64,000 nucleotides of DNA from contig JAYWIR010000006.1 in the NCBI GenBank assembly GCA_036172245.1, positions 1 through 64,000 of the forward strand. Reading direction: 5' to 3'. Under the pieces are notes generated by a model. The model was given only the letters and a program-made list of their open reading frames with translations. It did no database searches and had not been told where the DNA came from. A program made the translations under genes and the position numbers. The DNA is from Raillietiella orientalis. Lineage: Eukaryota. Shown piece by piece: positions 32,721 to 58,942 of the stretch (position 1 is the stretch's first letter; every line of letters begins with the position of its first letter).

Positions 32721-33960
32721 CTCACTGGTTAGCCAAGGTACTTGAAGTACCGTGGCTAACCAGTGAGGATCCCCAGGCGGATGCAGTCCGGCTGCCCCTC
32801 CAACAACGCTCCAACCGGTACGACCTTTGACTTCGTCCCTTGCCCGCACCCCGGCATATGAGCTCAAAAAATCTCTCGAGCTTCGTCAAGAAAGTGAAGC
32901 AGATCGTCAGCGCAGATCACCGCGGTCCGAGAACACGGGCAGGACGTCGGCTGGTTGGCAAGGGTTGTCCTGTACCCGCTCAGCACCATTCGAAGTAGGC
33001 GCTGAACAAGGTGGTGCTAGGGCTGTCACCTTGCCTAATTCCTCGGTGCTCCGACAGACCGTAAAAGTGGCGACCGCTGAAAGCACTATTTATTGGACCG
33101 TCGCGCCATAGCGAGCGCTGGCACTGCAGGAAGCAGTATGGAAGTCTAAGGCGCTCCGGGAGTTTCAGAAGGACCTCCTCGTTCACGCGGTCGGACGCTT
33201 TGCGCAAGTGTACCGCGATCGAGAGAGCCCAGTCCCTCTGCCTTTCGGCGAGTACGGTTCCCCGAGCCCTTCCGGGAGAGCTTATTGCTAAGGGTGTCCG
33301 CTGCAACTCGCTGTTGCAACCTGATCCAGGTTCGCGCGGGGAACAAGATCGACTCCCTACTTTTGCCCGTAACAGCATGGCTCAGCTCGAGTTGATGAAG
33401 GAGGTCGCCATCCTCCCAGCCGCGGTGTCCATATCCTGGAGAGCACTTTACCAGAGTAATCGGACACCAATTGCCCAGGTTCTGGGAATCTGCTCCTATT
33501 GGCGGAAGACAGTCTCTGTCTGACCGAAAAGAGGCTACCACATCGCCTCCGTCCAGGAGCAGCACGGTCAGCATCAGTACCAAGGAGGCTAGCAAGGCAA
33601 GGTCTCTTCTGCAAAGTTTCGATAGAATAACGTGGGTAGACCGTCGTCCTCTGGAACTTTTCTCCTTACGAGCGCCCCACTGGAGACGATGACCTCCGTC
33701 ATCGAGAACGGCTCTTTTTAGCGCGCTCGTTCCTCCTCCCCTATCGCAGCGGTGCACTCCTCGAACAGTCTCGAAAGAAAGGCATTTCCCACCTGTGCCC
33801 TTGCATTGAGAAAAGAGTAGAAATCGCGCACTAATCGGTGGACATAGGACGGTACCGAGCAATCCTGGCCTCGGTCGTTTAGCAGGCACGCCGCTGCAGA
33901 CTGTCGCTTGGCTCTGGCCTTGAATTCGACCAGCCTTCGGACGTCATGGTGTCTCCGTGG
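32721..33960 (-). mobile_element. Degenerate LINE ORF2 fragment (pre-RT and RT core)
   Basis: LGNWCPITL, AVHLRKASDRV (DLxKAFDRV), HRGIRQGDSPSTTLFSAYFE; gatctgcgctgacgatctg (ADDL) on the minus strand near 32900. Confidence 0.8.
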
Positions 33961-34446
33961 GGTGCTCGCTTGCAAAAAAACACTTCTATTTTACTGACCT
34001 TTCCCGATTTCGGATGGTAGGAGAGCCGATGGCAACTTTTCGCAAAATTCTCGGACTGATCTTTTCAGATCGTTTTATTTCGCGAGTTCCCGAATTTCAA
34101 AGTCGCGGTGGCACTGGCGAAGGCGCTTTTACGGTGGCTCTGGATGGCTACGACTTTCGTCCGGCTTCCTCCAAACGTTCATTGCCGAGCGGGAGGAGCA
34201 CAAACTCCTACCGAAGGTAGTTGGAAAGCGCGAACAGTACTCTTCCTCTGTTCCCTGCACGGGAATTCAATTCATCATCAAGAAAGGCGCCAACCGGCGT
34301 GTCCAACTGTCCATCCCAGGTGCTCTGGCCAGCAAGATGAGTGCACGCACTGACCCCCACATCTCGATGGGCGGCGATTTTTCTCACGGGTAGCTGCTCT
34401 CGTGCTTAAGCAGGTGGAACTTAAAGCTTTCCGGCGACGAGGCGTG

Positions 34447-35570
34447 CCACCCTGGTGCCGGAGACATTGAGCCATTCGCTCTGTATTCTCCGAAGAACTG
34501 AATCGGAGAAGACATTGCAGGCCATTTCGCTATGCCCGATTTGCGTGTCGGGAACACCAAAAATCCAGAACGGGAAGGACGGGATACAGGGTGATATGCA
34601 GATATGCAGGGTGGAGGTAGAGGACAGGGAAATTTGGCTTCGACCGTTCATCCTTTCAGAACGGGCGTTGTATACTGGTGAGTGGGGTCCTCACTTCTTT
34701 AAGATGACGCAATCTGGAAGCTGCTCTCATTTTGGTACCAGCAGCAATCTCGGTGACCTCTCTTGGAACCGCCTGTGACTCCAACTGGTTGCGGGACGTG
34801 ACTATGACGCGGATGTAACAGAGCATTGCGATGACCGCACCTAGGAGGCTTCCGCGCGTGAAGCGGCGTATCACGTCCATTGAGGTCTCCTCCGGATGCA
34901 GGAGCGCTGAAGACAGCCTTCACCACGGTCCTTGGAGGGAACAAACCGTCGAAGAGCAGGTGCGGGAGCGATTCCCCTGCTCCGCGCCTCCCACTGTACG
35001 AGGATGCAACTACCTCCTCCCTTGGTTCGTGCGCTGGCTGCAATGGAAACAGCATTGGACCAGCAGAAGCACGTCCTGTTTCGATGGTAGGGGGAACTCC
35101 GAAGTGTACACGCACGAGGGAGGGACTACAAGTTCTTCGGGGGACACACGGAACACCTCGTTCCTCTGAAGGAGTCCTTTCGCACAATTGGAAGTGGCAA
35201 CGTTTGCCAGCTCGCTCCTCTCCCAGCTGCTTAAGGGTCTTGTTTCTCCAGCAAGCGTGTAGAAGAGCTCCCATACCGCCAGCAGGCTACTGTCGTGGCT
35301 TGCCCTTAGGTTGGACAGCGTTGCTGCAAGGAGCGTAGCGGCCAGGCTATTCCTCTTGCTCTGGTCTTGCATCACATCCTCCAAGGGAAGGTTGGAGGGA
35401 GGTGTACTCAACGAAGTTGGCTTGGCAACACTTCCTGATGCCTTTCTGAGGAAGGTTTCGATAAGAAGAACGGGAAAGTCTTCTCCACGCCATTCCACTC
35501 TTGGGAAGCGATGTAGCCGCGGCAGCGGTGGCCAACGCGGGACCTCCGGAGGATGGGGAAATGCGGACAT
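34447..35570 (-). mobile_element. Degenerate LINE 3' fragment (subfamily B-like)
   Basis: VSPEELVVPPSCVYTSEFPLPSKQDVLLLVQ, GESLPHLLF, RRFTRGSLLGAVIAMLC; degenerate terminal hairpin motif at 34447-34470. Confidence 0.8.
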
Positions 35571-36030
35571 ATATTGCCTTAGGCTATAAATAAGCAATCA
35601 GATATAAGGTAAGCCACCTAAAGGAGAGCGATTCTCCAGCTCGACCGAAGACCAACGAGGGTCGGGGTACGCGAGGGAGACTTAGAGTCCCTCATACTGC
35701 TTGCAAAAACGAAGGCTGGGAATTGGTCTGCAAAAGAACAGAGTTCACCCGGCGACTTTTTCGAACGTCATTCAGCATCGAGAAACCAAGGGAGGATCAG
35801 TCTTTCGCTCTTCACTTGTCGGGCGCGTCCGACGACGAGGAGACTGCGGCGCTGGAGGATCACACCACCATGCACTCCCTGTGGCTGAAAGGAAAACTTT
35901 TGAAGAGTTTCAAATGTGTGTTCAGTGGACTTGGTGCGGTGCGCGTTTCCGCTGGGAGGGAAAAATTTCCCCGTAAAGTGGAGATGAGAGGAAGAAACGT
36001 CGAACTCTGGTTTGTGGGGAACTCTTGAAC

Positions 36031-36120
36031 TTGAAAAGTGATTTAGCTAATTTTGTTCAGAATAATGATGGAATTCTAGTCAAAGGCTCACGTGGAATGA
36101 AAATGGATCTTATAGTGTAG
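36031..36120 (+). pseudogene. murF: 3' end of bacterial murF (left edge of Wolbachia-like insertion)
   Basis: LKSDLANFVQNNDGILVKGSRGMKMDLIV; the VKGSRGM motif is typical of the MurF C-terminus; abrupt drop in GC. Confidence 0.7.
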
Positions 36121-36189
36121 AGATTCATAATAGAATATTAACTGAGATTGCTGTATTAATTTAGGGTTAAGTTATTAGAAATCTTAATC

Positions 36190-37121
36190 GTGACAAAACG
36201 CACAGTTATTTTTGGTTTCTAGGAAAACACATCGTAAGACGCCTGGCAGCAGCCGAGTATTGAATAAGAATATTTACTCGTGACCAGGAAAAAGCTGCTT
36301 GCCTCAAACTATGTGGAAATTTCGGGCAAATCTCAGTACTTAGAGGCGATTTTTTCAATGAAAAATCAATTTTGGAAAGTATGGAGGAATGTGATGCAGT
36401 CGTGAACTTGGTAGGAATATTATATGGAGCAAAAAAGCATGATTTCTACGCTGTTCACGTTGACATGGCTGGAAGAATAGCAAGAGCTGCAAAGATTGAA
36501 AAATGTACCCATGATGATACATGTTTCTGCTATGGGGATAGAAAATAGCAAGCTGCCATAATATGCTCCGAGTAAATTGGAAGACGAAAAAGCTGTAACT
36601 TCAGCATTTCCAGAAGCAATCATAATTAGGCCCAGTCTTGTATTTGGCAAAGAAGATAGTTTCTTTACTAAATTTGCAAAGTTAGCGACAATTCTTCCTT
36701 TTTTGCTGAAGATTGGCGGTGGAACAACTACATTTCAGCCGATATGTGCAACTGACCGAGCTGAAGTAGTATATCGCATAATCAACCTTAACAAAAAAGA
36801 CAAGAAAATCCACATAATAGGCGCACCAAAGTTCTATTCTTTCAAAAGCCTATTAAAGTTTATTTCGAATGTTACTAACACAAAGTGCTTGTTAGTCAAC
36901 GTATCCTTTCGAATGGCAAAGTTAATGGCTTTTTTCCTAGAAAGTACAATCATTTCTATGTTGCTAAAGCCTATAACCGGTGAGATGCAAGCCCCATGCT
37001 TACTCGATATCGGGTGAAAGTTATGATGAGCAGCTCAATCGAAAAATCAACTGACCTTGGAACAATTATCAATTTGAAAATATAGATGCCAGAATACTGG
37101 AAGGTTTATAGAAAGCATTGA
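36190..37121 (+). pseudogene. Complex I NDUFA9-family / NAD-dependent epimerase pseudogene, alphaproteobacterial type
   Basis: VIFG..FLGKHIVRRLAA, CDAVVNLVGILY, EAIIIRPSLVFGKEDSFF, TFQPI; intronless, with deletion, stop and frameshifts. Confidence 0.85.
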
Positions 37122-37534
37122 GGAGAAAGCGTGAAGGGGGCTGCAAAGAAATTTAAAATTGGCAAGACAGCTTCACAGGGGAAAAAAAAAAAGACGTGAG
37201 GAAAGAGGAGATTTTTAGTCAAAAAAAAGCCTGGAAGTGTGGGTCATAATTATAAAATTACCGACTGGGATGCACCTGCTGATACCAATTCCACTACACA
37301 GAAAGCGGACAGACGAAAGTGGAAAAAAGCTATAACGTCATTTAATGGAAACAAAAAAAAACTACTTGAAAATCTTCACCAGTTCCATTATCATAGGATT
37401 GGAGATATTCAGTTAATCTTTATCTGTGCAGATGAAACGACAAGAGTATTAAGGTTGGCGTCTTATGTTTAATTTTTTGCACTATGTGCACCTCATGTCC
37501 TTATTAATTTCACATAGACTTCTAGGTTTTTCCT

Positions 37535-37815
37535 TATGCAAGCTGAAACGCGTTTATAAGTCGTTTGAGACAGCATAGTACGCCAATTTGCAGGATTAAA
37601 GGGTGAGCAACTTCTACCAGGGATTCTTTTGCCTTTTTTTCTGCTTAGCAAGTTTCTTAGTACTTAAGCTAAGGGTCTGTTGCAGTTCCAAAGTCGCTGA
37701 ATTGCAGCGTTTAGGACTTTAAAAAACGCCACTACTAAAAATAGACAATGGCCAAGGATTTTTTTGCCTTTTTTTCTGTTTAGTAAATTTCTAAAATCTT
37801 ATAGCTTAAGCAATT
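37535..37815. repeat. Two imperfect ~135-bp tandem units of a Wolbachia-type intergenic repeat
   Basis: ggatt.ttttgccttttttt(t)ctg.ttag.aa.tttct recurs at ~37621 and ~37756; caagctgaaacgcg.ttataag start recalled from Wolbachia intergenic repeats. Confidence 0.55.
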
Positions 37816-38049
37816 GGAAGAGCACACAAAAAACGCTAATATTTAAAATAATTGCCCTTCTTCTAGGTTATGCGAGAAGTCTAACCTCTTTTTGAAAAAA
37901 ACATTTCCAGTGAAATCACCATGTCAATCAAAGTTACAAAAGACGTAATTATTTACTTTCTTTTTAAACATACATAAAATAAGAATGTACTATTATTATA
38001 ACAAAGTTCGGTATATTAGTTGACATTTAAGCGCAGTGAGATAGAGCAT

Positions 38050-38783
38050 TGAGGAGGTGAAGTGGCCCCAAGCGCCCTGCAACAGGACATCCCTCCCCTT
38101 GAAATGGCAGGAGGTGGCGTTGCTTGTGGTACATTGGGGTTTACCTTTCAAAGCACGCCTGCATCACTGCACACGGGGGAGCTGCAGACTCCCAGTGCGA
38201 CCGGTGCGGGTAAAAAGAGACATTCCCCCACCTTCTTCTCGTATGCAGAGCCATCCGCCCTTTATGGAATCGTCTTATGGCGATCCTGGACATCCGCGGA
38301 GGCGCCCCCAAGGACGTTTTCAGGCGCCTCTTCTCTCGTGACGCCATGTGCCAGCCCGCCTGGGTAGCAGTTCTCTGTTGCATTCGAGGGAGCGAGGCGG
38401 CTTGGAAGGCGACAAGAAGGCGCCAAGCCTGCGGCAACGCCTTACTTTGGACTCGCCTTTTCGTACGAAGCGTGTGCAAGTGGCGCCTTTTAGGCGCAGA
38501 TAGGCCGCAGCTTGTGAGGATCCTGAACAGGATCAAGAGGACCGTTCCGCGCGCACTGTGATTCCCTCCCCGCCCTCCCATGCCCAGAACAGTGGTTCCC
38601 TCCCTACTTTTGAACTCTTTGATTCTTTTGTTTTCTTGTATCCCAACCCCAGCGCGTCGGAAGGACCTCGCCGGTTCCGCACCGGCAAGAAGCAAACTGT
38701 CTTGGTGTGGAGAGCCAATGGACTCGGCACGGGAAAATTCCCGTGTTTTTATTATTAAATACATGCCCCGTCATATCCTGGTG
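38050..38783 (+). mobile_element. LINE 3' fragment (subfamily A) inserted in the Wolbachia-like DNA
   Basis: EEVKWPQAPCNRTSLPLKWQEVALLVVHWGL, ILDIRGGAPKDVFRRLFSRDA; stop at 38559-38561; T-rich UTR; degenerate terminal motif 38757-38783. Confidence 0.85.
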
Positions 38784-38834
38784 AAAATGAGATAGAGTAT
38801 TACTATCGGTTTTGTGGTTATGTTGTAATCAGTA

Positions 38835-38908
38835 TGAAAATAGTGCGATTCGAACGCACGGCCTTCGGTTTAGGAATCCAACGCTCTATGCTACTGAGCT
38901 ATAGTCCC
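38835..38908 (-). tRNA. Bacterial-type tRNA-Arg(CCT) pseudogene
   Basis: Minus strand GGGACTA TA GCTC AGTAGCATA GAGC G TTGGA TTCCTAA ACCGA AGGCC GTGCG TTCGAAT CGCAC TATTTTC A; D and T arms intact, acceptor and anticodon stems mismatched. Confidence 0.8.
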
Positions 38909-39149
38909 GTGTTTTCTGTTATCTGCACAAAATCATCGCAAAAAATCTCGTACTTTTCTAGATCTCCTGCGTCACCCATTTATAATGACAAAAAACATTT
39001 CTGTATTTTTCTTGAGTATGATGAAATTATATTTAATAATACGGTTTCAATTGATGCTTGTTAACAACATTAGTTATTCCTAAAGCAGTCAAGACGATTT
39101 CGCTTTAAGCAACATGAAGGTTGAGGAAAAGAGAGGAAAACAGTACTGG

Positions 39150-40480
39150 TACATCCGGGTGGCGGCAAGCCAATGCGAAAGGCCAAACTATGGTATGGAG
39201 TACACCTTCCAAAGGTGGTCTTCGGAACGGCCTTTGCTAGGTTGAACAATAGAAAACACCAGAGGAGTGGGAAAGCTGCAGAGAAAGACATTGTGGGGAC
39301 ACTATTGCCCAAGAGTCCGGTTGAAACAACTGTGTCGTCCTAGGGAAGAAGGCGGCTCCGGGATAAAGTCGCTTGCACATTCCATGGAAATCATGAATAC
39401 GCGACACATCTTGGATATCGCTACTCACTGGGATGACTGGCCGTACGCGGCGCATAGGGCATACGCCTTGTTGTTGAACAACTCGAAAGGCATGATGACT
39501 GCGCTGCTAGGCCGAACAGGAGAATGGAGAACCATCGACCCCACCTGGATAAGAAAACAAAGGCTAGTGCGAAAGCGCAAGATAAAAATCGTGCCTAAAA
39601 GTAGGGAACTCTGGCAGAAGGAATCCATCCTGGTGATCCCATGGATGCTTCCGGTCCCCCAAGACACGAGAAGCTGGATCTACCACCGTTCCAGAGTTAC
39701 CCTACAACGCATCCAGGGGTTCAGAAGAGGAGGATACCCACATCACACTTGTATACTCCGGTATAGAGAGATGATGTTAGGTAGGTTTACCAACAAGACC
39801 CGCGAAGTTTGGAAAAACCACAACAACTTCGCATGGTCCAGGGTAACCAAGATGAACCTCGGAAGAATTATTTAAGATGAAGACCAAGACACCAGTGCCC
39901 TCCAAGAAGCCGCCGATAGCTACGGGAGTAACAGTTTGAACCTGTTGGCGATTGGCACGACACTCTGGAGGAGTGACCTTCCGCCGGACACCCAGGACAA
40001 CCTCCTGATGTTTTATCATGGAGCAATCCAGAGCGGGTCCAGGCTCAAGCACTTCGCCGTAAGACAGGCAGATGAAGACTGCACGGCATGTGGATACATC
40101 GATACGAGACTTCACGTCTTGACGGGTCCCACTTTGCTACGCGACTGGCTGATCCTGAAAAGGATCAAAAGACTAAACAACAAGTGTGTGATGGAAATGC
40201 TCGCCGGGATGTATCAGGGAGATGGTAATGTTCCCTTTTTCAATCCCATGGTGAGGACGACCATTGTCCTCTTCATCACCGCCATACTTGTGCGGTGGTG
40301 GAAGATAAGGAAAGCCGGAAGAACCGGAACCCCCATGGAGGTCCTCCAAGGACTCATCCGGAAGGAGATCGGTATCAGAAACTGTGGACGACTCCAAGCC
40401 TGGAATGCCGATTCATCCTGAAGAGGATTGAGGACGACGGCCGGGACCAAACATCTGGAAACCCACACTGAGTGCAGAAG
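39150..40480 (+). mobile_element. Second, distinct L1/Tx1-type LINE family: ORF2 C-terminal fragment
   Basis: KLWYG..., LWGHYCPRVRLKQLCRPREEGGSGI (post-RT P..EGGLG motif), CTACGYIDTRLHVL (zf-RVT-like); sequence unlike subfamilies A and B. Confidence 0.75.
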
Positions 40481-40544
40481 TTTAAATAACCCAAAGGACC
40501 TTCAAGTGAAAGAGGTATTGTATTGTGTGAATGGAAATTGTAGT

Positions 40545-41274
40545 ATGAATGTTTAAAAATTGAAACATAAATTTACCCCACCTCTTGTGGGACTTTGTGA
40601 AAATCGCGGCAAGTCAACGATCTCAAAGTTAATTGCTGGGATGGAAAATCCAAAATCTGGCACCATTTTTCTAAATGATAGGCCAGTTGCAAGTAGCCAC
40701 ACATCAATTGCAATAGAGCACAGGAATGTCGGATGGATTTTTCAACATTCTGCTCTGTTTCCTCACAAAACAGTAGTAGAGAATGTAACTTTCGCTATTC
40801 GTAGCTCTTATAACAAAGCAAAGTATCTCACTGCATTGGAAATCTTGTAGCTATTAAACACAGAAGAATATGAAAATATGTATTCTAATGCCCTACCCGG
40901 AGGGCAACAACAATTAGTTGCAATAGTAAGAGTAATGGCGCAAAATCCTGATGTTGTGTTGCTCGATGAGCCATTTTCTATCTTAGATACACTGTCAAAG
41001 TGCCGAATAAGACATCATATATTGTTTCTTTTTAGAAGTAAAAATACCCCCATGTTGATGGTAACTCACGATCCGCAAGAAGCATTAAAGGTCGCACATT
41101 TTATGTTCGTGATGAAAAGCGGTAAAATGATCCAATCAGGAGTTTCCAGTGATATACATATATCATAGTCCTAAAGATCATACGCTGGCAAAGTTCTTCT
41201 TCAGTGACTGCTCTTCTATTTTACAGTTAGGTGATGAGCTTCCGTTGGATGGTATACTTGCTGCAAGAAAATAA
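40545..41274 (+). pseudogene. ABC transporter ATP-binding subunit (PotA/FbpC-like) pseudogene
   Basis: Decayed Walker A (ENRGKST), FQHSALFPHKTVVENV, LPGGQQQ, LLDEPFS, MVTHD; internal TAG at 40848-40850. Confidence 0.88.
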
Positions 41275-41415
41275 TCTAGATTGAAATTATTATAAAATAG
41301 AACCAAACACAAAAAAATTTCGATCTATAACAAAATAGGGTGACATGATTCATGTGTTACTTGACTTCAGTCAGGTTTCCTTTTCCAAAAGTTAATATTT
41401 TAAATAGAGGTACAA

Positions 41416-41559
41416 ATGAGCTTGGGACCATGGCGATTGTTTCTAGTCTTAATAATAATCTTAGTTCCGTTTGGCGCAGATAGGTTCCCACAAGTTATGG
41501 GTGATCTGGGAAAAGGCAATAAAAACCTTAAACAAGGACTCGGAGAAACTGTCATCTAA
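41416..41559 (+). pseudogene. tatA: Twin-arginine translocase TatA, probably degenerate
   Basis: MSLGPWRLFLVLIIILVPFGADRFPQVMGDLGKGNKNLKQG; agagg Shine-Dalgarno-like sequence upstream. Confidence 0.8.
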
Positions 41560-41689
41560 CGAGCCAGATCGTGAGCGTCTTTATACTTTGTGACGCGTAC
41601 TTTAGTGCGTGTCATCTGTTTGAAAACTTGAACTAGCTAAAGAGTAGATTGAAATACTGCGGTAATTATGTTAGTTAGAAGGAATCATT

Positions 41690-42360
41690 TTGTTAAAGGA
41701 ATTAATTGGGCAAAAAAGTGGGGAATCAACCGAAAATAGAAAATTAGCTCCTGATACTCTAAAAAAGGTTGCAGACACCAACAATGCCAATAGTGATAAA
41801 GTAACACTGTTTGACAGAAAAACCGCTTTGCATGAGCGCTGTTTTGGTATTTTAATAATTATCTTCTCTTTGCCACTATCAGTACCCATGTCGGTTCCAC
41901 CTAGCTATACAACTCTACTTTCTATACCTCTGATCCTATTCTCACTGCAGCTTCTGTTGGGGTTTGATTCTCCTGGATGCCTCGCTGGTTGGAAAGAAAA
42001 GTCTTTTCAACGATCAACACTAGCTGTTGTGGTAGAAAGAACTTCTGCTCCAAGAAAAATAGAAAAGTTCATGAAACCGAGAATGTCTTTCATTTTCTGC
42101 GGGCCAGGTGAAAAGATTTTAGCTTTCCTAATGCTGCTTTGTGCATTATCAATAGCCATTCCGGTGCCCCTAAGTAACTTTATGCCTGCAATTGGCCAAC
42201 TCTCATTTCACTTGGTATTATGAGTAAAGATGGGCTTCTCTCTATACTGGGAGTCTTAGTATCTCTATGCGGCTTGCTATTTACCCTTGTTGTAATAGTT
42301 AAAGGACCACAGATCATACTGGGAGCATTTTCTTTTCTAAAAAGTTTTGTATATGGTTAG
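41690..42360 (+). pseudogene. exoD: ExoD-family exopolysaccharide synthesis protein pseudogene
   Basis: LHERCFGILIIIFSLP...IPVPLSNFMPAIG; frameshifted tail MSKDGLLSILG; stop overlaps the cysS start. Confidence 0.8.
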
Positions 42361-42537
42361 GCTCTATAGCACCTCAACCCAAAAAACAGAGCCTTTTATA
42401 CCGATCGACAAAGATCCTGTAAAAATGTACGTTTGCGGACCAACGGTATATGACACGGCACACATAGGTAATGAGCGTTCCGTTGTTGTTTACGACGTAT
42501 TATTTCAACTGCTTAAATTTTGTTATGGCAAAGTTAT
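42353..42537 (+). pseudogene. cysS: Cysteinyl-tRNA synthetase N-terminal fragment
   Basis: [28 protein letters not shown]; truncated after YGKV. Confidence 0.9.
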
Positions 42538-43264
42538 TTCTTTTTCTTCCTTGGAAGCGATGTTTTTCACTATCACTGCACTCAATTGATATGCTAGAAT
42601 TGCCCATTATTTCCAGCTAGTTCGTGTAATTGACATGGCGTTACGAGTTCTATTTTTCCACTGCTTTCAAGAAATTCCAATTCATTTCTGGTTTCGGCAA
42701 CAGAAGGAAATTACTTCGTTCGATGTATCACGTAAATTTTCTTTGCAACTTTAGAAAGCTCTGTGGTCCTATCAGCCGCAGAATCCCCTCCACCTGCAAT
42801 GACTATCGTTTTATCCTGAAAATCAGGAATTTTATTTAAGCTATAAAATACAGATTTATTTTCATATTCTAATATACCGCCAAGGGGTGGGCGGTTATGC
42901 TCAAACATTGCATTTCCTGCAGCAATGACAACAGCTTTGCATTTCACTTCTGTGCCTATGTTCGTTATTACAGTAAAGTGTTGACCGCCGTTATCCGAGA
43001 CTTTTTCCACCTTTTTTGACTCAAGTGGTAAACAGGCTCAAATGGCGAGGCTTGCTCCATCAACTGTTCAATTAGCTTTTGAGCAGTAATTATAGGTTGG
43101 CCAGGTATATCGCATATGGTTTTTTCTGGGTAAAGAGCGGTACATTGCCCTCCCGCTTGATCCAAAACATCTATGATCTGACATTTGATATCGAGCATCC
43201 CTGCTTGAAAAGCAGTGAATATTCCAACGGGTCCTGCACCTATTATTACAATGTCAGTTTCCAT
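42538..43264 (-). pseudogene. Ferredoxin-NADP reductase / thioredoxin-reductase-family pseudogene, 3'-truncated
   Basis: [51 protein letters not shown]; frameshifts near 43010 and 42715. Confidence 0.9.
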
Positions 43265-43269
43265 ATCAG

Positions 43270-43855
43270 GTGATAATTTATTTAGATATTAGCTTTCTTT
43301 GCGAGCAAGCTCAATCGCTTACAAATATCACATTCTTGCATGGGTTTCAACAGCGTGCTACGCACATACCCAACATGAAAGAACTACTTGACGAATTTTT
43401 TCAACTCCCTTATTATAAGACTGAAGCTGTGCAGATAAATCGGCAAAATCTCATATATCTGAAGCATAATTGTGAAACTTCAAATTTGTGTAGTAAAAAC
43501 ATAAAATGTGAAAGTCAAACGATAGGCAATGTTGGCAAGGGAATGCCAACATCCAAGTCCAATTACACAAGCGGATCTGTTAATGAGCACAAGATGGATA
43601 ATCTTTGTAATGAGCTTGCAGAGGTGGTGGCTCAAACAAAATCTCAAAGCGGGTTTTCCTAAAGTTGCTCATTTTTCAGTTCCACCGGAAACTAATGGAA
43701 AGTCTCATGCTAGTGCTGAGCGTGAACCTCAGCAAAGTTCTGTGAATGATGCTCAAGAAAATCCGAAATCAAAATTTACCGATGTAGTTCATGAACGTGT
43801 AGGTCAATCAGTGGGAAGAAATGATAAAAAAAAAAGTGGAATGCCTCGAGGTTAA
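43270..43855 (+). pseudogene. Frameshifted hypothetical gene within the bacterial-type insertion
   Basis: Two overlapping AT-rich ORFs (43270-43662, 43529-43855) divergent from the reductase; no recognisable domain. Confidence 0.4.
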
Positions 43856-43904
43856 GTCCTAATATGTTAGACGCTTTCTTTTTCTTGTCATTTCGGCATT
43901 TTTT

Positions 43905-44101
43905 TCCTGTCATTCCAGTGCTTCTCTTTTGTCACTCGGGTAGCGGACACGGGAATCTAGAAATGCATTGGGTTTAGTAGCATAGGTTTTACAAGAAATA
44001 ATGAGTGTTTTTGTAAAATTGTGAAGAAAGGTGGATCCTAGTGTCAGCTACTTGGATGACAAAGGGGATGGATGTCACTCCAGCGTGTGACGCTGGAATC
44101 T
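43905..44101. repeat. Cluster of Wolbachia/Rickettsiales-type short palindromic repeats
   Basis: tgtcattccagtgct, tgtcactcgggtagcggacacgggaatc, ggatcctagtgtcagctacttggatgaca, tgtcactccagcgtgtgacgctggaatc resemble the TGTCATCCCAGTGCGTGACACTGGGATC family as recalled. Confidence 0.75.
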
Positions 44102-44423
44102 GGGAGCAGAAAAAAACGAACAAAACGTTTTGGAAAAAAATTTGAAAAAAGGGTTTACACTTGAATTTGTTCTTGGTATACTAATTGCAGAATATTTTTA
44201 CTGGGGGTTAATATGCATGGTAGCAAAGATAATGAACGTAGCAATATATGGCCTTCACATAGAAAGGTTGGTCCTGATAAGTATAAAAACTACGAGCGGC
44301 AACGCGAAAGCAGCAAGCCTGACACACAACTAGGTAGTAGCAGTTCTACTAATGCTAGTAGTAGTAAAGGTAAAGACAAGAGTAAGTAATTTTTTTTTGT
44401 GACAATTTTAATGGGAGTGGATT

Positions 44424-44897
44424 ATGCCTAAGAATAATTTTGTAATAGAGTTGGTTGACGCATTGAATTTGTGTAATTATTATTTTGATGATATTTACAC
44501 TAATTTTACTGTAGAAGGGAAAAGGATTGTTGGTTCATTTGTTTCTAGTACTGATATAGAAGAGTGTTCTCAAAAAGTAAAAGAAGAAATAATAAAACGA
44601 CACTATGGTACTGAATGGGCAGCAGAGAAATATAACAATTTAAAGTGTTTTCCATTTGTTATAGGTGATTAGAGGAAAAATCATACAGATTTAGAGGTGG
44701 AGTTTGCAGGTTCTATAAATAGTGAAGTAATTCGTAACTTGAAGATTTATTTTACTCGAGAGTTTATGATGAAGGTAAATGCAAAAGTAGCTGTAAATCT
44801 AGAAGAAAGGGGATTAATGATGGTGGAAGAGGGTCATGAGTGTGGAAAAGGATCTGTTCAACTAGAAAGAACAGACAGATCTTCCCCTTATTTATAG
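44424..44897 (+). pseudogene. Hypothetical bacterial-type gene with an internal stop
   Basis: ORFs 44424-44672 and 44697-44897 are in the same frame, separated by one TAG; gggag upstream. Confidence 0.45.
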
Positions 44898-45068
44898 TGT
44901 ATACCTTTTGGCGATGGGTATTGTAAAATGAAGGGGTATCCTTCAAGATTTCTTGAAATATTAAAAAAATATATATGTTACAGCATTTGAAGAAAAATTG
45001 GAAGAATGCAGTCTTGAAAAGGTTCAGACATTTATGAAGGTAGAGATAATGAATTATACATAAAAGAC

Positions 45069-45880
45069 ATGACCAACATAAATGTTATCAAGAATATAGC
45101 AGAACGTCTTAGAGAACGAATAGCGCTTGATTTTAAAACTCCAGGCACAGAAGATTCTAAAGTTGAGAATTTTAAGGATATCCTTAGTAGTTTAATTTTT
45201 ACATGGGCTGTGAAATGGATTAGTGCTTGTGAATGTATAGAGAGTGGTGATAGTTTTTTCCTGATACCTATAGCAAAAAGGTATGGTGATCAGCTTGAAT
45301 CTTTAAAACTCAGGGACTTGTACAAAACTAATGTAAAACGTAAGAATTTTCTATGTGATATTAAAGGTAAGGCTGCAGATCCAGACATTGATAATTGTGA
45401 AGACCCTGTTTATGCGATCCCTAATAAAAAAATTGCTGAGGTACTTCCTAAAATTATGCAATCTCCGTTTGCGTATAATGAAAGAACTGGACATTTTGAA
45501 TTTGCAGCTGATCTTGGGCCAAGTTCAAGTGTGGGGTCTCCCAGCTGTTCCAATATCTTCTAAAGTGCCTCTGCCTCAGCTGGGGACAGGAGTGGGGGTA
45601 GCTGTTCCTCTCACTTCAAAGTTTGATCAGAATAAGAATCCGGATGAGGGTTATGATTCTATGCAAAATTCATCACAATCTGTAAATGCTAGAGTTCCAT
45701 GAGATGTTGAAGGAATAAAAGAAAGGCGTAATAGTGATGGACGTAATCTTGACGGCGTTTCTGTAGATAGTGCTCTTCTGAATTGCATGTATTGCAGCCT
45801 GCAAGTGGAATGGATCAAACAGATGATATTGGTGTGTACGCTTCACAAGAACTTCTTACCAGTGATCTTGAAGATCCTGC
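45069..45880 (+). pseudogene. Frameshifted hypothetical bacterial-type gene (right edge of the insertion)
   Basis: 164-aa ORF continuing as Ser/Asp-rich coding-like sequence in shifted frames up to ~45880. Confidence 0.4.
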
Positions 45881-45919
45881 TTGAAAAGCGATAGCAATGG
45901 GTCCCCTTCCTATAAGATA

Positions 45920-45966
45920 ATCGCTTCTCGCCTTTTGGCTAAGATCAAAGTTCTTATCAGCTTAAT
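45920..45966 (+). ncRNA. U2: U2 snRNA 5' fragment with an internal 11-nt deletion
   Basis: ATCGCTTCTCG-CCTTTTGGCTAAGATCAAAG[TGTAGTATCTG missing]TTCTTATCAGCTTAAT matches metazoan U2 nt ~1-59. Confidence 0.9.
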
Positions 45967-47325
45967 TTGTGTGTTTTTTTGTTCCTGTCGTGTGTTGAAC
46001 CCTGTCTCTAGTGATGTTTCCAGTGTTTTGTCTTTTTGTGTGTTGTTTTTTAATATGACCCCACTGCCTTTTTTTTACTAGTGGTCATTGTGTTGTGTGG
46101 CTTGTAGTTTTTCTGTGCTCTGTGTTTTGTTGTTTCAGTTTTTTTGTGTCGTGTGCCATTTGTTTTGTGTTGCTTAAATTTGTTTTATGTTTTTGGTCTT
46201 TATGTTGTCTTTTGTTATGTAGTTGCCTTTTTTATTGAATTCGATTTGTTTTTGTTTTTTTATGTATTCCTATGTACTGTATAAACCTTTTTCCTGTGTG
46301 CATTGTGCCTTGGGAAGTGAAATGAGTCGCTTCCGCAAGTAGTTACCGAAGCGCTGTCTGGAATTGTGTCCTGTCTGGGCAGTGTCTGCTGGTGACGTCT
46401 AGACTTACTGTGCCTACTCCTATTTAATAAAGTGTTTCATTGATTCCACTGTTAAGTTGTTATATGTTTTTGCAATCTGGTTTTGGTTTATTGCACTTGG
46501 GCTTCTTTATGTACGCAGTTTTTCCAAATTTTTTAGATTTAGTTGATGTTTTTTGCCTTTTTTCTTTTTTTTATCACTTGATCACTTGTGAAAAGACGTC
46601 TTTTATGGTCACAGTGGTTTTTCCACATGTTCGTTAGTTGCAAGAAAATTGTTCGAGAATAGCTTGTGAACTCGCTACTTGATGAGTACAAGTTCCAAGG
46701 GAAACAGCCGTTGTTGACGGTATTCCCCCTAAGTTTATGGAAACAGTTGAAAGGGTACAATTGGACCCACAGTCGCGTGTGTTTACCGTCCTTTACCCCA
46801 TAGCCTCACCGCTTAGCTGTGGTGTGGCTAATTGCAATTTTGCTACGCGAACAGCTGCTATACTTCAACAAATCAACTCTTTAAAAAGGCACTTTCGATC
46901 TGTACACGAACTAGAAGTGGATAGGGTGATTTACAAATGTCGTGTTTGCTTGAGACTTATAACTTGCAGAAGGCCCTCTGACCATCGATGCTTCGATGTG
47001 GATCTCCACATCGAAACCAATGAGCCCCCTCACGACCTTCCGTTGGAGAAAGATCCATGAGGTTTTCTTGCAAGAAGCCAGAATGTGGGATGGCATTCTC
47101 CTCGAGAAGGGGTTTGCTTAACCACCAAATCTGGCAGGACCGGATGGAAAGGAGGACACGTTCCCCTTCTCCTGCGGTGTGTTCCACCCAAGAAGAAGTG
47201 CAAGAACTTCAAGTAATTACTAGCTCTGAACACACGGATGTCCAAGCAAAGCAGGATACTGGCTTCTTTGGAAATCTGGACGAAATTATTGGGGAACTGC
47301 TAGAACAGTAGCCAACTGATGATAC
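45967..47325 (+). mobile_element. 5' portion of a Utopia/NeSL-like RLE retrotransposon (TG-rich 5'UTR + N-terminal zinc fingers)
   Basis: ORF 46737-47060 VLYPIASPLSCGVANC...SLKRHFRSVH...YKCRVC...PSDHRC, then frameshifted FSCKKPECGMAFSSRRGLLNH; directly follows the U2 fragment. Confidence 0.72.
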
Positions 47326-47349: not shown

Positions 47350-47476
47350 AAATGCGGAGCTGTCGTTGATGCTCGGAATAAATATGGTAAAACTGCATTG
47401 CACTTTGCTGTTGAAGGAAGTCATGAAGAAGTGGTTAAGCAGCTTTTAAAGTGCGCAGCTGACATTGATGCTAAAA
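47350..47476 (+). pseudogene. Isolated ankyrin-unit fragment paralogous to 21614-23974
   Basis: ttgatgctcggaataaatatggtaaaactgcattgcactttgctg is identical to 22311-22355; translates KCGAVVDARNKYGKTALHFAVEGSHEEVVKQLLKCAADIDAK. Confidence 0.88.
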
Positions 47477-47670
47477 TGTGATCCCTTCCCTGCTCTCCAA
47501 ACTCTTTTTGATTCGTTATTTTTTATTTTGTTTTTATGTTTTCCCCGTCCCCTTTCACTGCCGAGGAGTGGCACGCCCTGCTGCGTTCCGTGGCCGCTAG
47601 TGGGTCGTTGTACCACCTAGTCTGTTGACCAAGAAGGTGTTCTAATAAACGTCCCGGCGTATCCGGGTGG
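47477..47670 (+). mobile_element. Solo LINE 3'UTR (subfamily A) from the ORF2 stop to the terminal hairpin
   Basis: tgtgatcccttccc, T-rich tract, gccgaggag, tggccgctagtggg...tgtaccac, aataaacgtcccggcgtatccgggtgg; matches 55221-55440 and 1844-2056. Confidence 0.85.
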
Positions 47671-48045
47671 CGACGTCTAATGGAAGATCTGGACAGCGAT
47701 GTTGCGGCGAAGTGGCAGGTTACTGTCACCATCTCCGAGAAGGATAAGAAGATAGGAGAGTAGAAGACGGGCGAGCTAACAGACTGCGATCCCGAGTACG
47801 CTTCCTCATGGACTTGCGCGCTGGGGCGCGCTGCTCGATGTTCCCATTGAACATCTGAAGTGACCCTTGTTGCTCAACTCCTTCACCCTCCCCTTAAAAC
47901 GGCAGGAGTCGGCTCTACTGTTGCAGCACTGGAGACTCCCTTGGAACGCCAGTCGACACCATTGGACCCGGGGAGCGGTGAACCCAAATTGTGTTAGGTG
48001 TGAGGTACAGGAGTCCCTCCCCAAAGAACTCTGGAGAAGACGTTC
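47671..48045 (+). mobile_element. LINE ORF2 internal fragment
   Basis: RWGALLDVP, LPLKRQESALLLQHWRLPWNASRHHWTRGAVNPNCVRCEVQESLP. Confidence 0.75.
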
Positions 48046-48444
48046 TTTGGACAGCAATGACCAGGAAGGCAAAGAGCATGCGTGGACGCGATCGCCTTCA
48101 AGTGTGCATGGAGGAACGAACTGCGTACGCTAAAAACGTGCCAAACACGTCCCGCTCAAGCGAAGAACAGGTGGCGCGTCGCTCTGCACGGCTTTTGCGG
48201 AAAAGTGCGATCGTCTTCGAACGGTATGACAATGTCGCCCCTGCAGTTGTCTCCTAGAATTTTACAGAAGTAAGCGCAACTGAGAACGCGACTGTAAGGA
48301 GGCGTTTCCCACGGCAACAGAGAGGAACATGCGAGCTGCAAGGTGCTGACTCCGAGAAGCAGTTGAATTCCTCTGCCACCGCAGGTGATACTCAATCCGT
48401 TGTGGGAAGGCGTAAGCCCAAGGCGGGTAGGCAGGTGTTAGAAT

Positions 48445-48860
48445 GTGGATAAAATGGAGCAGGAAGAGGGTATGGAAGTGGCCTCTCGCGACATCTCAAA
48501 GGAGGGCTGCAGAAGAGATTTCCATCCAAGGGGACATACGCACAAGTCCATGGATGACTTGGAGTGGCATGCATTCCCTGCATGCATGCCCCTCTCACCA
48601 AGGGGGGAGGAGGGTCCATCCATCATGTTCTTTGCCATGACGCCCTATCATGCTTCCTCTCGTCGTCTGCGATTCACCAGTTTGAATGCCAACGGTCTGC
48701 ACGACGACGAGAAGAGACGCTCGGTAGATGAAATCTTGCGCTTTTTCGATCTCCATCTGGCACAGGAGACGCATCAGACCTCCCATAAGGAAATCGGAGA
48801 TATCGAGAAAAGTGCGGAGAGAGCTGCATTGGTAGAATGGCACAGAGCACTGGTGCGAAA
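48445..48860 (+). mobile_element. LINE ORF1/ORF2 junction fragment with APE endonuclease start
   Basis: RLRFTSLNANGLHDDEKRRSVDEILRFFDLHLAQETH = APE domain I/II motifs (N.NG ... QETH). Confidence 0.75.
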
Positions 48861-50212
48861 GGTAACTTTCTGAAGAATGCTGGAACTGAAGAATTGCGAT
48901 TTTTTCAAATTTAATTTCTTTCTCCTGTGCAAGGAGGCATTTTTCACGAATTTTGTTAGATTTATAACGCATTTTGAGAAAATCAAACTGTGAGCAGCAT
49001 TATAGGAACAATCGAAATCGCCAACTATCACATATTCATTCACGAGAACCTGTCAGGTTATTCATTTGCACATGTGGCTTTCCGTATAATTTCTCTAAAG
49101 GCTTTTTTCCGCACGAGAATTCCTCAGTTTCTCCGAGTGCTGACTATGACATGGAACGTGTTTACCGGAAGCGCCATTTGACCCACAAAACAATTTGGAG
49201 CTTGTTGCTAGAAATCAATGATGGAAACATTAACCGGCATTTATTACATTTCTAAGAGGATTTGGCTACAATGGATGGTTTGGAGAGGAGTCAGCTACTC
49301 CCAAATTACGGGAGAATGATTTTAAATTGCTTGGAATAGGCTCGTAAGAACTTGGAGCAAGGGAATTTCTAGAAAAGCATTTTTTTGATAGAGGTAGGTT
49401 GTTACTGAGCTCTTAGAACTGTAGACCGATCAAGAGAAGAAGGCATCAGAAGATCTAGGGCTTGAAATAAGTTCATATTTTGGAATCCTATCAGCAGTTT
49501 TTCAAGGGTAAGCATAAAAAGAATTCCAAGAAGCAGGAAGAAAACAAATATGTGAGAATCTACAAAGAGATGGTTTTTAATATAAAAGAACCGTCGCAGT
49601 CAACGAAGGCGACACGAAAATTTTGCTTCAATTTCGTCAGCAGAATTTCACACAACTTGTCAGTAATGCTAATGTGCTGAAATCACTAAGCATTGACCAA
49701 AGAATTTTGGTCTTACAAATACAGTTTCCAAGGCACACACGCACCCACAACTACGAAAGTATACATAAGAAATCAAAGGGTGTGTTCAGAACATAAAAAA
49801 AATCAGTACTGATATTGATCTGCACCTCCTGGAGTTAGAACTAATCTTAGAACTCGATGTGGTGGTTTAGATGGTGGTGGTCTGATTGATTGTGGCGGAG
49901 GCGAAAGTGGGGACATTCATCATTGTTTGAAATAATTTGAAGTAGTGGTGCAATCCCTCATTCTTGAACACAGAGGTGTTCATTGGAGTTTCTATTGCAA
50001 CCAACACGAGCACCTAGTTTCCGGGGGATTTCCTCCTCGGACTACTCAAGGTGCGGAGCGTTGGAATCATTTCCGCACCTGCTATTGCACTGTGGTGCCC
50101 TTCAAGAACCGTGGTGGAACCTGCCTTCGGCGTCCTGCTCCAGGAAATAGTTCCAGCGATGTGATGCGGCAGTTCTTCACAGAAGGAGTCCTCTCTCCGA
50201 GCGTAATGGTTT

Positions 50213-50540
50213 CACACTCGGGTTCACCGGGCGTTTATTCTCTTACAGGAATCGATGGAAACGATGGCCCACCATTTTCAATTACAACACTAGAAAGAAG
50301 TAGGTTGAAACAAAAATAGAAAATGAAAACAAACTAGAACAAAAAAAACAAACAAATACAAAATTGGTAGGGGAGAAGGGAAGGTATCTCATTTCGTGGT
50401 GGGTGAGGCCTTTCCATCCGTTGAAGGATGCAGACGAGCTCCTCCTCCTCTCTTCTCAGGTGGAGTCACCTGGAAGCTATTTGCTGAAAGCGGATGGCGT
50501 GCAGGACAGATCCCCTTTCACTTGGGCCTCCGTCGGCGGC
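50213..50540 (-). mobile_element. LINE extreme 3' fragment
   Basis: Minus strand EEELVCILQRMERP (compare EDLEGILQRMDP), T-rich UTR, aataaacgcccggtgaacccgagtg at 50213-50239. Confidence 0.7.
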
Positions 50541-50785
50541 TCACTTTGCCGAAACCTGGTTTGGGCGGAAGTGTTTTTCGGTCACTCCGTCAGCGAGTGT
50601 CTGGGAAGGAACTTTACTTTCGTGTGAGGTGTTTAGGGTGAATCGTCGGTGTCCGATTGCAGCCTTTCCAGTGGACACTGCGATGGAGGTAGGTGTTGTG
50701 GAGGCCTGTTCACCCCCACAACCTGCAGAATGGGGGGTATCTGCCCCAGGATAACCCCCGCCGCCGGCGTGGAGCTGGAGCGCTA

Positions 50786-54790: not shown

Positions 54791-54799
54791 GACCGCTGA

Positions 54800-55850: not shown

Positions 55851-55879
55851 CCGACAGGTTTCCTGCAGACCAAGATCTC

Positions 55880-56312: not shown

Positions 56313-57169
56313 GGAGCTGATCTCGAATCGCTAACTAGTTCCTGTCACACTTGGAGAGGTTTTTGGATTCTCTGGAGCATGCATTTTTCTATTTTTGTGT
56401 GTTTTCCATTCCCACTTTGTTTCATATCCTCTTCTTTCTTGCCTTCTTTATTCTTTTGGTAATTCATTAATCATCTAGCTTGTCTAGTTTGATGAATTTT
56501 ATTGTATCCCTCTTTTCTCAATATTTCCAGATTGAATTTCATCGGCAAACAAATCTGGAATTCTCAATAAAATGACCATGACATTTCTGGAGACACAGCA
56601 GTAGGATGGTGTGAAAGTTTTCATGATTAATTATCACACAGTTCATTATTATCATGGATGGAATGTCATTGCTTTTTAATATGATAGAAATAAGAAAATT
56701 TTGAATTCATAAAAGAATAATTACTGCCAGAAATTTTCATTTCAAATCAACATATCATGTTTATTATTTTGCAGGTAAGGTCATCCATCAGCTTTTATCC
56801 ATAGATGTTCGGTATTTTTTTTTCCTTCAAAACGTAATTTTATTCGATTCAGGTAAACTGATGGAAATACTTCAAAATTGCGTTCGTTGTAGTCCATGAA
56901 GCAATTCAGCTGCCGATTGCAAGCTGTACTGTGGTGCCGCAGGGCAGACGAGGATCAGGAATTCTGGATCCTGGAATTGAAAAGGCATCTTCTGCTTGTC
57001 GTACATGTATGACTTCTTGAGCTGTTGGTGCGTTAATTCCGTACTTAAATCATAACTTTAAAGTAGTTGATGCATCATCCTTGTTGATATTGGCAGTGCG
57101 TGCGTTTTACAAACATCAATTCAAACGAATGCAATTTCAAACTGTGAAAAGTTGATCAGGAAAGTAAGA

Positions 57170-58942
57170 ATGTCCTCGTTAAAAAATGTTTCCAAGTCTG
57201 CTCGGCATACCTATAAAGAGAGACATCAGGTATGTAAGGAATCCAATTTCGGATGTGTATTGATTTTTACCTAGCCAGCAGAAAGAGCCAAATTTGGTCT
57301 TCTAGAGAAAAAAAAGGATTACAAACGGAGAGCAAGGTATGCAGTTTTTCTTACTAAGCCACTGCATTTGCTGATTCCAGGGAATATAATAAAAATCAAG
57401 CAATATTAAAAAAGCTAAAAAAGAAAGCCCAGAACAGGAATCCTGATGAATTTCATTTTCACATGATTAATTCGAAGACAAAGGTATGAAGATTTAGATT
57501 TTATAACCATATGCAACTGAACTTGAGTTTCTAATACCTTACTGTTTAGTATTTGTACTCGATGTTGCATTTCAACTTAGGTTTTTATTAAGTCCCTTGA
57601 TGAAATGGTATCTTGACTTTTCACGAAACTCTCCTCATTCTTTTCTCAAATTGTATTTTTAACTGAAATGAAACCTACCCAAAGGTAACTGATATTTCAG
57701 AAAGAATTTGCATAACATTAGCAAGTGAAGAGTTCAGTTATATCTGTATGCATGGCTATGAAAATTGTCACAATTGTTCTTTAACAACTTGGAAAAGGTT
57801 TTGCTTTTGCAGTGTTAAAATACTTTTTCTTAAAAAGGACTTATCTTGTTTTGTTGTATATGCTGCTTGATGTATATGTGAGTAAGAGAATGTTTTTTTA
57901 TTTTTACCAGAACCAGGATTTTTTTTTATTTTCCTTTCTTTACAGTTTTCTAGTAGACAAGCAGTGCAACAATGATAATTTCTTACTCTTGTGATTTACT
58001 CTAAGGGTGTGGTTTTTCCTCATTCCAGTTTGTTTGTTGTTACAAAATTCTTGTTCTCCATTTTTTGCATTCTACCTGCTTATTTGTTTTCCAAGGAAAA
58101 TGAAACTTTTGGTTCTCCATTTCATAAATTTGTTAGCAGGGACTGCATTTTTCATGGGGAGCATAGATTGTAAGACAAACTAATACTAGGATTTAGTGGC
58201 TTGGAACTACAAGTGTTTTTTTTTTGGCTGTGATTTCATTGTTATGTCAGTCATTATATCAGTTCTATATTTTTAGGATGGGTTGCATTATGAACTCAAG
58301 AAAAAAGAGCACACAGCAGAGCAGTTGAAATTGCTTCATGGACAAAACTTAGGGTATGTTAGAATGAAGCATACAATGGAGAATAAAAAGTTGGAAAAGC
58401 TCAAAGCAGAACTGCAATTACTTGGTGCTGAAAGCATCAAAAATAGGCACATTTTTTTTGTGGATACTCTGAGAGAAGGTGTGGTCACTGAATCTTGGAA
58501 GATTTAATAACATGTTTGCAGCAAAGCATTTTGATGTTGCTTCACATTTGGACACCCATCCATCTCTACTTCATAGGAGTTTCAATAGACCACATTTGTC
58601 TTCCTTATACTCCATGGACATCAAGGGATTGCAGAATGAAGACACTTTGAAAGTATGAATTGTTTAGCATTTCTATATGACATGTTTCTTCCAGAAAATT
58701 GATAAATTGAACAAATCAGCATGCAGCATGGTGGATACTAGATTGGAACGAAAGAAGCAGCTTTCCATAGTACAGAGGAAATTAGAAATAGCAAAATATT
58801 TACAGGTACTGAATCTGAAGAAAGTCACTTGCTTACTTCTACATATTCTTAGAACAAAAAAGAACCACCGGCTAAGAGAATAAAAAGAGGGAATAAAAAA
58901 CGTGCCCCTGTTTATCAATGGAAAGCAGAAAGAAAGAAATAA
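57170..58942 (+). CDS. UTP11: U3 snoRNA-associated protein 11 (252 aa, 7 exons)
   Basis: Exons 57170-57229, 57275-57336, 57381-57483, 58277-58478, 58522-58652, 58695-58805, 58853-58942, all GT-AG, sum 759 nt in frame: MSSLKN...KERHQP...GLLEKKKDYKRRA...RNPDEFHFHMINS...NRHIFFVD...HLDTHPSLL...APVYQWKAERKK*. Confidence 0.95.

Follow-up and report, generated by a model that had tools for sequence, protein, structure and literature searches.

Decayed Wolbachia DNA, probably of supergroup F, interrupted by host LINEs in the nuclear genome of a probable pentastomid

The DNA described here is a window of 64 kb (the whole stretch that was analysed) at the start of a 6.0-Mb contig (C6) in a 210-Mb eukaryotic assembly (G000). 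Between positions 36031 and 45917 it carries about 7.7 kb of bacterial DNA, the rest of the interval being two host long interspersed nuclear elements (LINEs). This locus is a nuclear Wolbachia transfer, a conclusion that we regard as virtually certain. A decayed Wolbachia-like insertion of about 10 kb had been proposed in an earlier note on this DNA, and closer comparison bears it out, all the genes named there being present in donor order; the right end, set at 45880 in that note, lies at 45911-45917, and a deletion of about 4 kb between cysS and a reductase gene, as well as a second donor segment (43467-45917), had been missed. As a whole, the explanation that we consider probable is a germ-line infection of an ancestral pentastomid (tongue worm, a blood-feeding crustacean parasite) by a supergroup F strain, followed by transfer, LINE insertion and neutral decay.

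Host LINEs and neutral decay within the Wolbachia DNA

Two 5'-truncated 3' ends of host LINEs interrupt the bacterial sequence, each framed by a target-site duplication:

38051..38787, + strand: LINE1, 5'-truncated host LINE 3' end; 14-bp target duplication 38037-38050 / 38788-38801, with one mismatch
39175..40605, + strand: LINE2, 5'-truncated host LINE 3' end, within the Walker A codons of an ABC ATPase gene; 14-bp target duplication 39162-39175 / 40606-40619, with two mismatches

At both LINEs the duplicated 14 bp are Wolbachia sequence, present just once in the donor. Three public sequencing runs (shares 0.05-0.10) represent free Wolbachia relatives, with coverage only over the Wolbachia parts of the interval, and they lack the LINEs, two runs skipping LINE1 and three skipping LINE2. 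Since duplications of Wolbachia sequence flank host LINEs, the Wolbachia DNA was already in the host nucleus when these elements inserted. Both belong to abundant host families: LINE1 has at least 38 other host copies among the 41 matches listed and LINE2 at least 40 further copies among the matches listed (82-92%), the nearest genomic copies being at 89% and 92%, respectively. Other copies of both families extend further 5'. The LINE2 family encodes a reverse transcriptase, as RVT_1 scores above its cut-off upstream in copy L002, and a zf-RVT-like match was found below cut-off in a longer copy of the LINE1 family. The 5' truncation, fixed 3' end and target-site duplication fit target-primed reverse transcription. 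A fixed insertion target was considered and rejected, the 3' flanks of other copies (10 and 7 copies) being unrelated. Two LINE fragments had been recognized in the earlier note; their limits are those given above, LINE2 being 125 bp longer than had been stated.

The bacterial genes are decayed throughout. Nearly all of them had been described as broken, and indeed each of the 10 protein genes with a match is truncated, frameshifted or stopped. Among 3700 insert sites that are invariant in three to five F-clade genomes, 234 have changed in the insert (6.3% divergence). The changes within genes comprise 109 nonsynonymous, 51 synonymous and six stops; the synonymous share of 31% shows no difference from the neutral expectation of 28% (p 0.39), and the insert is, as judged from its substitutions, DNA that has decayed neutrally and without function. 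Third codon positions are somewhat elevated (8.1% changed, against 4.6% and 5.3% at the others), which suggests that a small share of the insert branch arose in the living donor. The changes also have a direction: 148 of 2528 A/T sites (5.9%) became G/C and 40 of 1172 G/C sites (3.4%) became A/T (p 0.002), and in a much older Wolbachia copy on contig C227, described below, 304 of 1136 A/T sites (27%) and 48 of 543 G/C sites (9%) have changed. This drift toward guanine and cytosine (GC) occurs without CpG excess (2/141 versus 25/1031), and a consistent trend of this kind is not present in four living Wolbachia strains. AT-biased mutation is usual in animals, opposite to the drift observed here. 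The inserts serve as neutral probes that reveal GC-ward substitution in this host.

Bacterial 16S was absent from the three 16S matches in the assembly. Together with the target-site duplications and the neutral decay, this rules out simple contamination. The proposal of a true and old lateral transfer can therefore be kept as regards the transfer; 'old' holds in a relative sense, the 6.3% divergence coming without a calibrated rate.

Gene content and donor strain

The insert and its second segment contain the following features:

36031..36140, + strand: murF, final 36 codons, with a stop (tblastn 81% to the MurF of locus L040; the donor gene has Mur ligase domains)
36190..37121, + strand: NDUFA9-like NAD-dependent epimerase pseudogene (10- and 14-bp deletions, frameshifts, stops)
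37230..38036, no strand: Wolbachia intergenic DNA with dispersed repeats (77% to F-clade genome G015; multi-copy depth in free Wolbachia contigs)
38835..38908, - strand: Wolbachia tRNA-Arg(CCT) (ARAGORN and Rfam; colinear with L040)
38955..39175, + strand: ABC ATPase, 5' part, ending at the Walker A codons (donor comparison)
40606..41213, + strand: ABC ATPase, 3' part (stop, 4-bp insertion)
41410..41576, + strand: tatA pseudogene (8-bp deletion)
41711..42360, + strand: exoD pseudogene (several 1-bp indels; Pfam ExoD 4.9e-30)
42350..42539, + strand: 5' part of cysS, truncated by a deletion of about 4.04 kb (donor comparison)
42540..43264, - strand: TrxB-like flavoprotein reductase, 5' two thirds (frameshift, stop, 14-bp insertion)
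43467..43855, + strand: 3' end of a Wolbachia hypothetical gene (418 amino acids in G041; no Pfam or NCBIfam family)
43860..44110, no strand: dispersed Wolbachia repeats, with a hairpin at 44025-44110 (repeat matches, folding)
44213..44390, + strand: small Wolbachia hypothetical gene (62-67 amino acids in relatives, by matches in these)
44424..45917, + strand: broken, 3'-truncated Wolbachia hypothetical gene (520-636 amino acids in relatives), reaching the right end of the insert (six stops over three segments; contig of run X1 93.6% over 43570-45911)

Donor gene order is kept from the 3' end of murF through the NDUFA9-like gene, tRNA-Arg(CCT), the ABC ATPase, tatA, exoD and the 5' end of cysS to the reductase. 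GC content drops from 53% to the left of the insert to 36-38% across 36031-45917, where two islands reach 57% and 50%. The tRNA gene still scores 52.5 bits, and the top NCBIfam model of the reductase is TIGR01292, at a score below its cut-off. The deletion joins positions 10844 and 14881 of L040 across an imperfect AT-rich overlap (42532-42539) and removed the remainder of cysS, a gene of 137 amino acids, pgk and the 3' end of the reductase gene, 4 kb that run X1 retains on one contig. Relocation of these 4 kb elsewhere in the genome was rejected, as only 63- and 114-bp matches were found, and a second long copy of the insert was not found in the host assembly.

What had been described as Rickettsiales-type palindromes are dispersed Wolbachia repeats, with dozens of matches in each of five genomes; when three repeat stretches were folded, only 44025-44110 gave a significant hairpin (z -3.8), the other two having z values of -1.4 and -0.5. 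A plasmid search with 36000-38050 gave no match. The three-gene cassette of the second segment (418, 62 and 520-636 amino acids; L115, L116) is fast evolving, belongs to no Pfam or NCBIfam family and has matches in 17 of 60 Wolbachia genomes.

The donor is, with great confidence, a supergroup F strain. Searched against bacterial genomes, the exoD frame matched 16 loci, of which 15 are named Wolbachia and one is a Rickettsiales bin, in agreement with the expectation that the best matches would lie in the Anaplasmataceae. Free-Wolbachia contigs of run X1 match the entire bacterial part at 92.7-93.8%, the matching ending at 45911. The best of 60 genomes of the genus reach 90-92% over 40606-42539, and outside their clade identity is at most 84%; colinear F-clade genomes stand at 88-93% versus 76-86% for 24 other rows. 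A tree with 31 rows and 2084 columns, which excludes Howardula, G031 and any segment with less than 75% coverage, places the insert within a 100/100 clade alongside six strains, among them the Paracimex strain, assigned to supergroup F in PMC12710357. The insert has the F state at 13 of 13 diagnostic sites. The standard markers (16S, ftsZ and multilocus sequence typing genes) are not within the insert, and no supergroup assignment of the cicada strain was found in the literature.

This insert is one among many. A probe of 20 kb from genome G015 gave 46 host matches at 67-96%, 40 of them outside the locus and many to Wolbachia repeats. The copy on C227 (G000:C227:13778-17535, L137) is an older F-like Wolbachia mosaic, 64-74% identical, which falls among F-like rows (93/97) when four segment rows are left out, with 15 diagnostic sites in F state, three non-F and three other. 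Its branch of 0.54 is about 8-fold longer than that of the present insert (0.068), and its GC content of 48-51%, against 31-35% in the donor, is at host level. The possibility that it represents a GC-rich living relative was rejected: changes are even among codon positions (0.25, 0.27, 0.28 and 0.17, 0.27, 0.31 in two stretches, against 0.04-0.13 at positions 1-2 in controls), and 23 of 27 indels are out of frame. Many inserts and a much older F-like copy point to a repeated supply over a long time.

A 10-kb probe spanning the biotin operon and its surroundings gave 14 host matches, three of them within bio genes and none to bioC, bioD or bioH:

G000:C44:790936-791192: bioA scrap, 257 bp, 84%, with a 7-bp deletion
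G000:C56:19570-19712: bioF scrap, 143 bp, 92%
G000:C31:2108951-2109079: bioB scrap, 129 bp, 85%, with a stop

The scraps on C56 and C31 are each part of a mosaic of further Wolbachia fragments, with host LINEs nearby. BioB scores above cut-off in 12 of the 60 Wolbachia genomes, and the scraps were compared with Wolbachia biotin operons only. The three scraps and the diverged F-like copy hint that a blood feeder was long associated with a strain carrying the biotin operon.

The host and the source of the infection

Mitochondrial genes place the host very probably with the pentastomids. For COX1, the three best of 8000 scored candidates are pentastomids (Armillifer, Linguatula) at 73-74%, above 117 insects; 21 residues are common to the host and all three pentastomids and occur in at most three of the 117 insects, with eight contrary residues. 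For ND5, Linguatula is the best of 21373 hits by 38 bits in a search of 1.84 billion representatives, the runners-up being thrips, wasp, myriapods, springtail, scorpion and caddisfly (10 of the top 11 were looked up). The trnL2 gene lies between cox1 and cox2, and trnD stands alone upstream of atp8, trnK having gone from between cox2 and trnD. These characters match the pentastomid arrangement (trnL2 between cox1 and cox2, trnK moved) in PMC1590035, neither being exclusive to pentastomids, and the trnL2/trnD arrangement also fits PMC10355681. The protein genes follow the ground-pattern order; rearrangement is seen in the tRNA cluster, with E, N, A and S1 upstream of nad3, the position of trnK not assignable and the trnQ region outside the contig. 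Between cox1 and cox2 the mitochondrial contigs (G000:C282 and C285; L074, L075) have a 570-bp duplication that has decayed, and their nad3 is frameshifted. The same mitochondrial type occurs as nuclear copies on Mb-sized contigs (93.5% and 79%), and the 54 COX1 matches genome-wide include many nuclear copies. An 18S gene was found in the assembly. The host branch lies outside Armillifer plus Linguatula, the position expected of a cephalobaenid or raillietiellid. Identification of the host from UTP11, which had been suggested, yielded nothing in one-exon searches.

It is improbable that the host is instead another fast-evolving pancrustacean (a branchiuran or a hexapod) drawn to the pentastomids by long branches and base bias, in which case the insert would be an ordinary one. 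The COX1 lead of pentastomids over insects is only 9-15 bits, the host mitochondrial branch is long and the mitochondrial composition is strongly skewed (G 6.7%). Set against these are the first rank of pentastomids for two genes in two libraries, above thrips, centipedes, springtails and a scorpion, and the rare COX1 residues, of which any single insect shares nine at most; trnK is absent from the hexapod position, and the ground-pattern protein gene order differs from the order of Argulus americanus, which is described as rearranged (PMC1590035).

An inherited infection of the pentastomid lineage is likely, in preference to DNA from an insect host. According to the latter alternative, which we consider unlikely, the pentastomid was never infected and the insert stems from an F-infected insect in which its larvae develop. 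Larvae of cephalobaenid pentastomids do develop in the cockroach fat body (PMC12130985), cockroaches and termites carry supergroup F (bioRxiv 10.1101/2022.09.06.506778), and an assembly without bacterial 16S fits a never-infected host. Uptake from an insect accords poorly with the many inserts (40 further matches per 20 kb of donor and 14 for another 10 kb), since their number and the 8-fold range of divergence call for steady access to the germ line. Insect nuclear DNA was not noticed at the locus, where no search aimed at insect DNA was made.

The earlier note had envisaged a host lineage not known to carry Wolbachia. This appears to be the case: the host groups with pentastomids, and no record of Wolbachia in pentastomids was found in a literature search whose coverage excluded most subscription journals, joint mentions of the two being unrelated; an article on reptiles (PMC8397688) contains no mention of pentastomids. 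Nuclear Wolbachia transfers themselves are well known, and what is probably new here is a pentastomid host for them. The closest parallel among the systems compared is the cattle lungworm Dictyocaulus viviparus, for which Wolbachia genomic fossils are described (PMC4046930): in both cases broken Wolbachia DNA is co-assembled with the genome of a vertebrate parasite for which no infection is known, without sign of live infection, and the lungworm donor is near clade F. The present case differs in its arthropod host (a probable pentastomid), in a donor inside the F clade and in nuclear residence established through LINE target duplications. Here, as in the Wolbachia-free filariae Acanthocheilonema viteae and Onchocerca flexuosa (PMC2882956), a former symbiosis is disclosed by its fossil inserts; those worms, unlike pentastomids, for which no record was found, belong to an infected family, and some of their inserts are transcribed. 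With the F strains of bedbugs and Rhodnius (PMC12710357, bioRxiv 10.1101/2022.09.06.506778) the insert shares its supergroup, a blood-feeding host and biotin genes in the donor pool, and lateral Wolbachia transfers into the host genome are reported for Rhodnius (bioRxiv 10.1101/2022.09.06.506778). Those symbionts are living, whereas here dead nuclear scraps of three of the six bioABCDFH genes lie at three other loci.

If this interpretation is correct, Pentastomida, a group of blood-feeding airway parasites of vertebrates that are zoonotic and invasive, would join the Wolbachia host range, and supergroup F, a clade bridging arthropods and filariae, would gain a third kind of host. It would also raise the question of whether living tongue worms carry, and depend on, Wolbachia, dependence suggesting antibiotic control as for filariae. 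More speculatively, and by analogy with bedbugs, the tongue-worm lineage could long have carried germ-line supergroup F bacteria, at least one strain with a biotin operon, as suppliers of B vitamins for a blood diet; the symbiont might persist in some pentastomids, having entered through insect intermediate hosts. We put this forward as a tentative idea that is doubtful at present.

Junctions, order of events and neighbouring features

The sequences at the two ends of the insert, and the host gene further right, are as follows:

35594..36024, + strand: host LINE open reading frame (ORF) 1, cut just 5' of its zinc knuckle, the end of a 36-kb block common with contig C65, which runs on into the CCHC knuckle
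36025..36030, no strand: 6-bp filler repeating the insert's first bases (junction comparison)
45920..47310, + strand: about 30 bases of the 5' end of U2 small nuclear RNA heading a host element with zinc-finger-like motifs (Rfam U2 27.4 bits, below the gathering score of 46)
57169..58942, + strand: host UTP11 gene on the same contig, with introns of about 45 bp (Pfam Utp11 above cut-off in two of four exons)

Window positions 1-36024 are the reverse complement of the end of C65 (G000:C65:495908-531930), 99.94% identical, with 22 differences that all lie in 23057-24839; both contigs end at the same base. C6 and C65 diverge exactly at the insert, 36 kb from the contig end, where C65 continues an intact LINE ORF1. 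As the left flank is nearly identical between contigs and the insert is 6% diverged, the left junction is younger than the insert; it is probably a recent duplication or rearrangement, or else a mis-join, and the internal evidence is unaffected. C65 as a simple empty allele was rejected, its continuation failing to rejoin C6 over the first 94 kb and a 3.25-kb probe being without a close second copy. A 13-bp look-alike at 36030 and 45880 was rejected as a target duplication, both copies being Wolbachia sequence.

That the locus should be an assembly chimera, or contamination by living Wolbachia, is barely credible. The position of the left insert end at a contig fork is what such an error might leave, and a mis-join could concern that junction only; host LINEs with target duplications stand within the bacterial DNA, every protein gene is broken, the substitution pattern is neutral, and the insert is continuous with the spliced UTP11 on the same 6.0-Mb contig.

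The preferred explanation, the inherited supergroup F infection, would then run as follows. Once the strain had infected the germ line of an ancestral pentastomid, a stretch of its chromosome running from murF to the reductase and a second piece with the three hypothetical genes would have become integrated in a host chromosome, the latter piece at or after the transfer. The most likely route would be end-joining repair of a break, which the filler copying the insert's first bases suggests. The 4-kb stretch with essential genes, absent from the insert, may have been lost at or after insertion. Two host LINEs, whose duplications are present, would then have inserted by target-primed reverse transcription, and neutral decay would have followed, base composition shifting toward the higher GC of the host. 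The present left end probably arose later, when a duplication or rearrangement attached the 36-kb host block, cut within a LINE.

Several points weigh against this explanation. Continuity across the junctions and copy number are known from the assembly sequence alone; the left junction coincides with the C6/C65 fork, so that it may be a mis-join; and the assembly showed no living Wolbachia. Support for the position of the insert relative to the other F strains is low (88/93, 53/76). The bio scraps, at loci unlinked to the present insert, speak against a simple biotin reading, as does the bioB scrap, which over 117 bp is closer to G050 (89.7%) and G049 (88.9%) than to G015. As for the host, its placement comes from mitochondrial genes alone, with 73-74% identity to named pentastomids; the COX1 tree has insects as its only other taxa, without branchiurans, and flags the host branch as long; and the mitochondrial contig, with its partial duplication and nad3 frameshift, may itself be a young nuclear copy.

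On the right, the flanking element has an ORF at 46686-47060 without Pfam hit, and short matches to the U2 head of this element lie on many contigs; the head is reminiscent of the U2-targeting LINEs (Utopia, Keno). Nested host LINEs in both orientations occupy window positions 29100-35600 and 47500-56300, and on C65 a nad3 fragment is fused in frame to a LINE reverse transcriptase remnant (L065:712-950). Further left in the window lies an intact, intronless ankyrin-repeat ORF of 788 codons with a PRANC domain (21608-23974, + strand). Its best relatives, at 37-50%, are in ants, lacewings, flies, bees and metagenomes, a Wolbachia protein reaching 38%, and the 69% match at 22205-22357 was rejected as part of the insert, being ankyrin repeat similarity. 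The 10 kb around this ORF have paralogues at 66-83% on at least 10 contigs, the differences between C6 and C65 are concentrated at its 3' end, and a 126-bp scrap of the same family, 82% identical to the intact gene, lies at 47350-47475 (+ strand).

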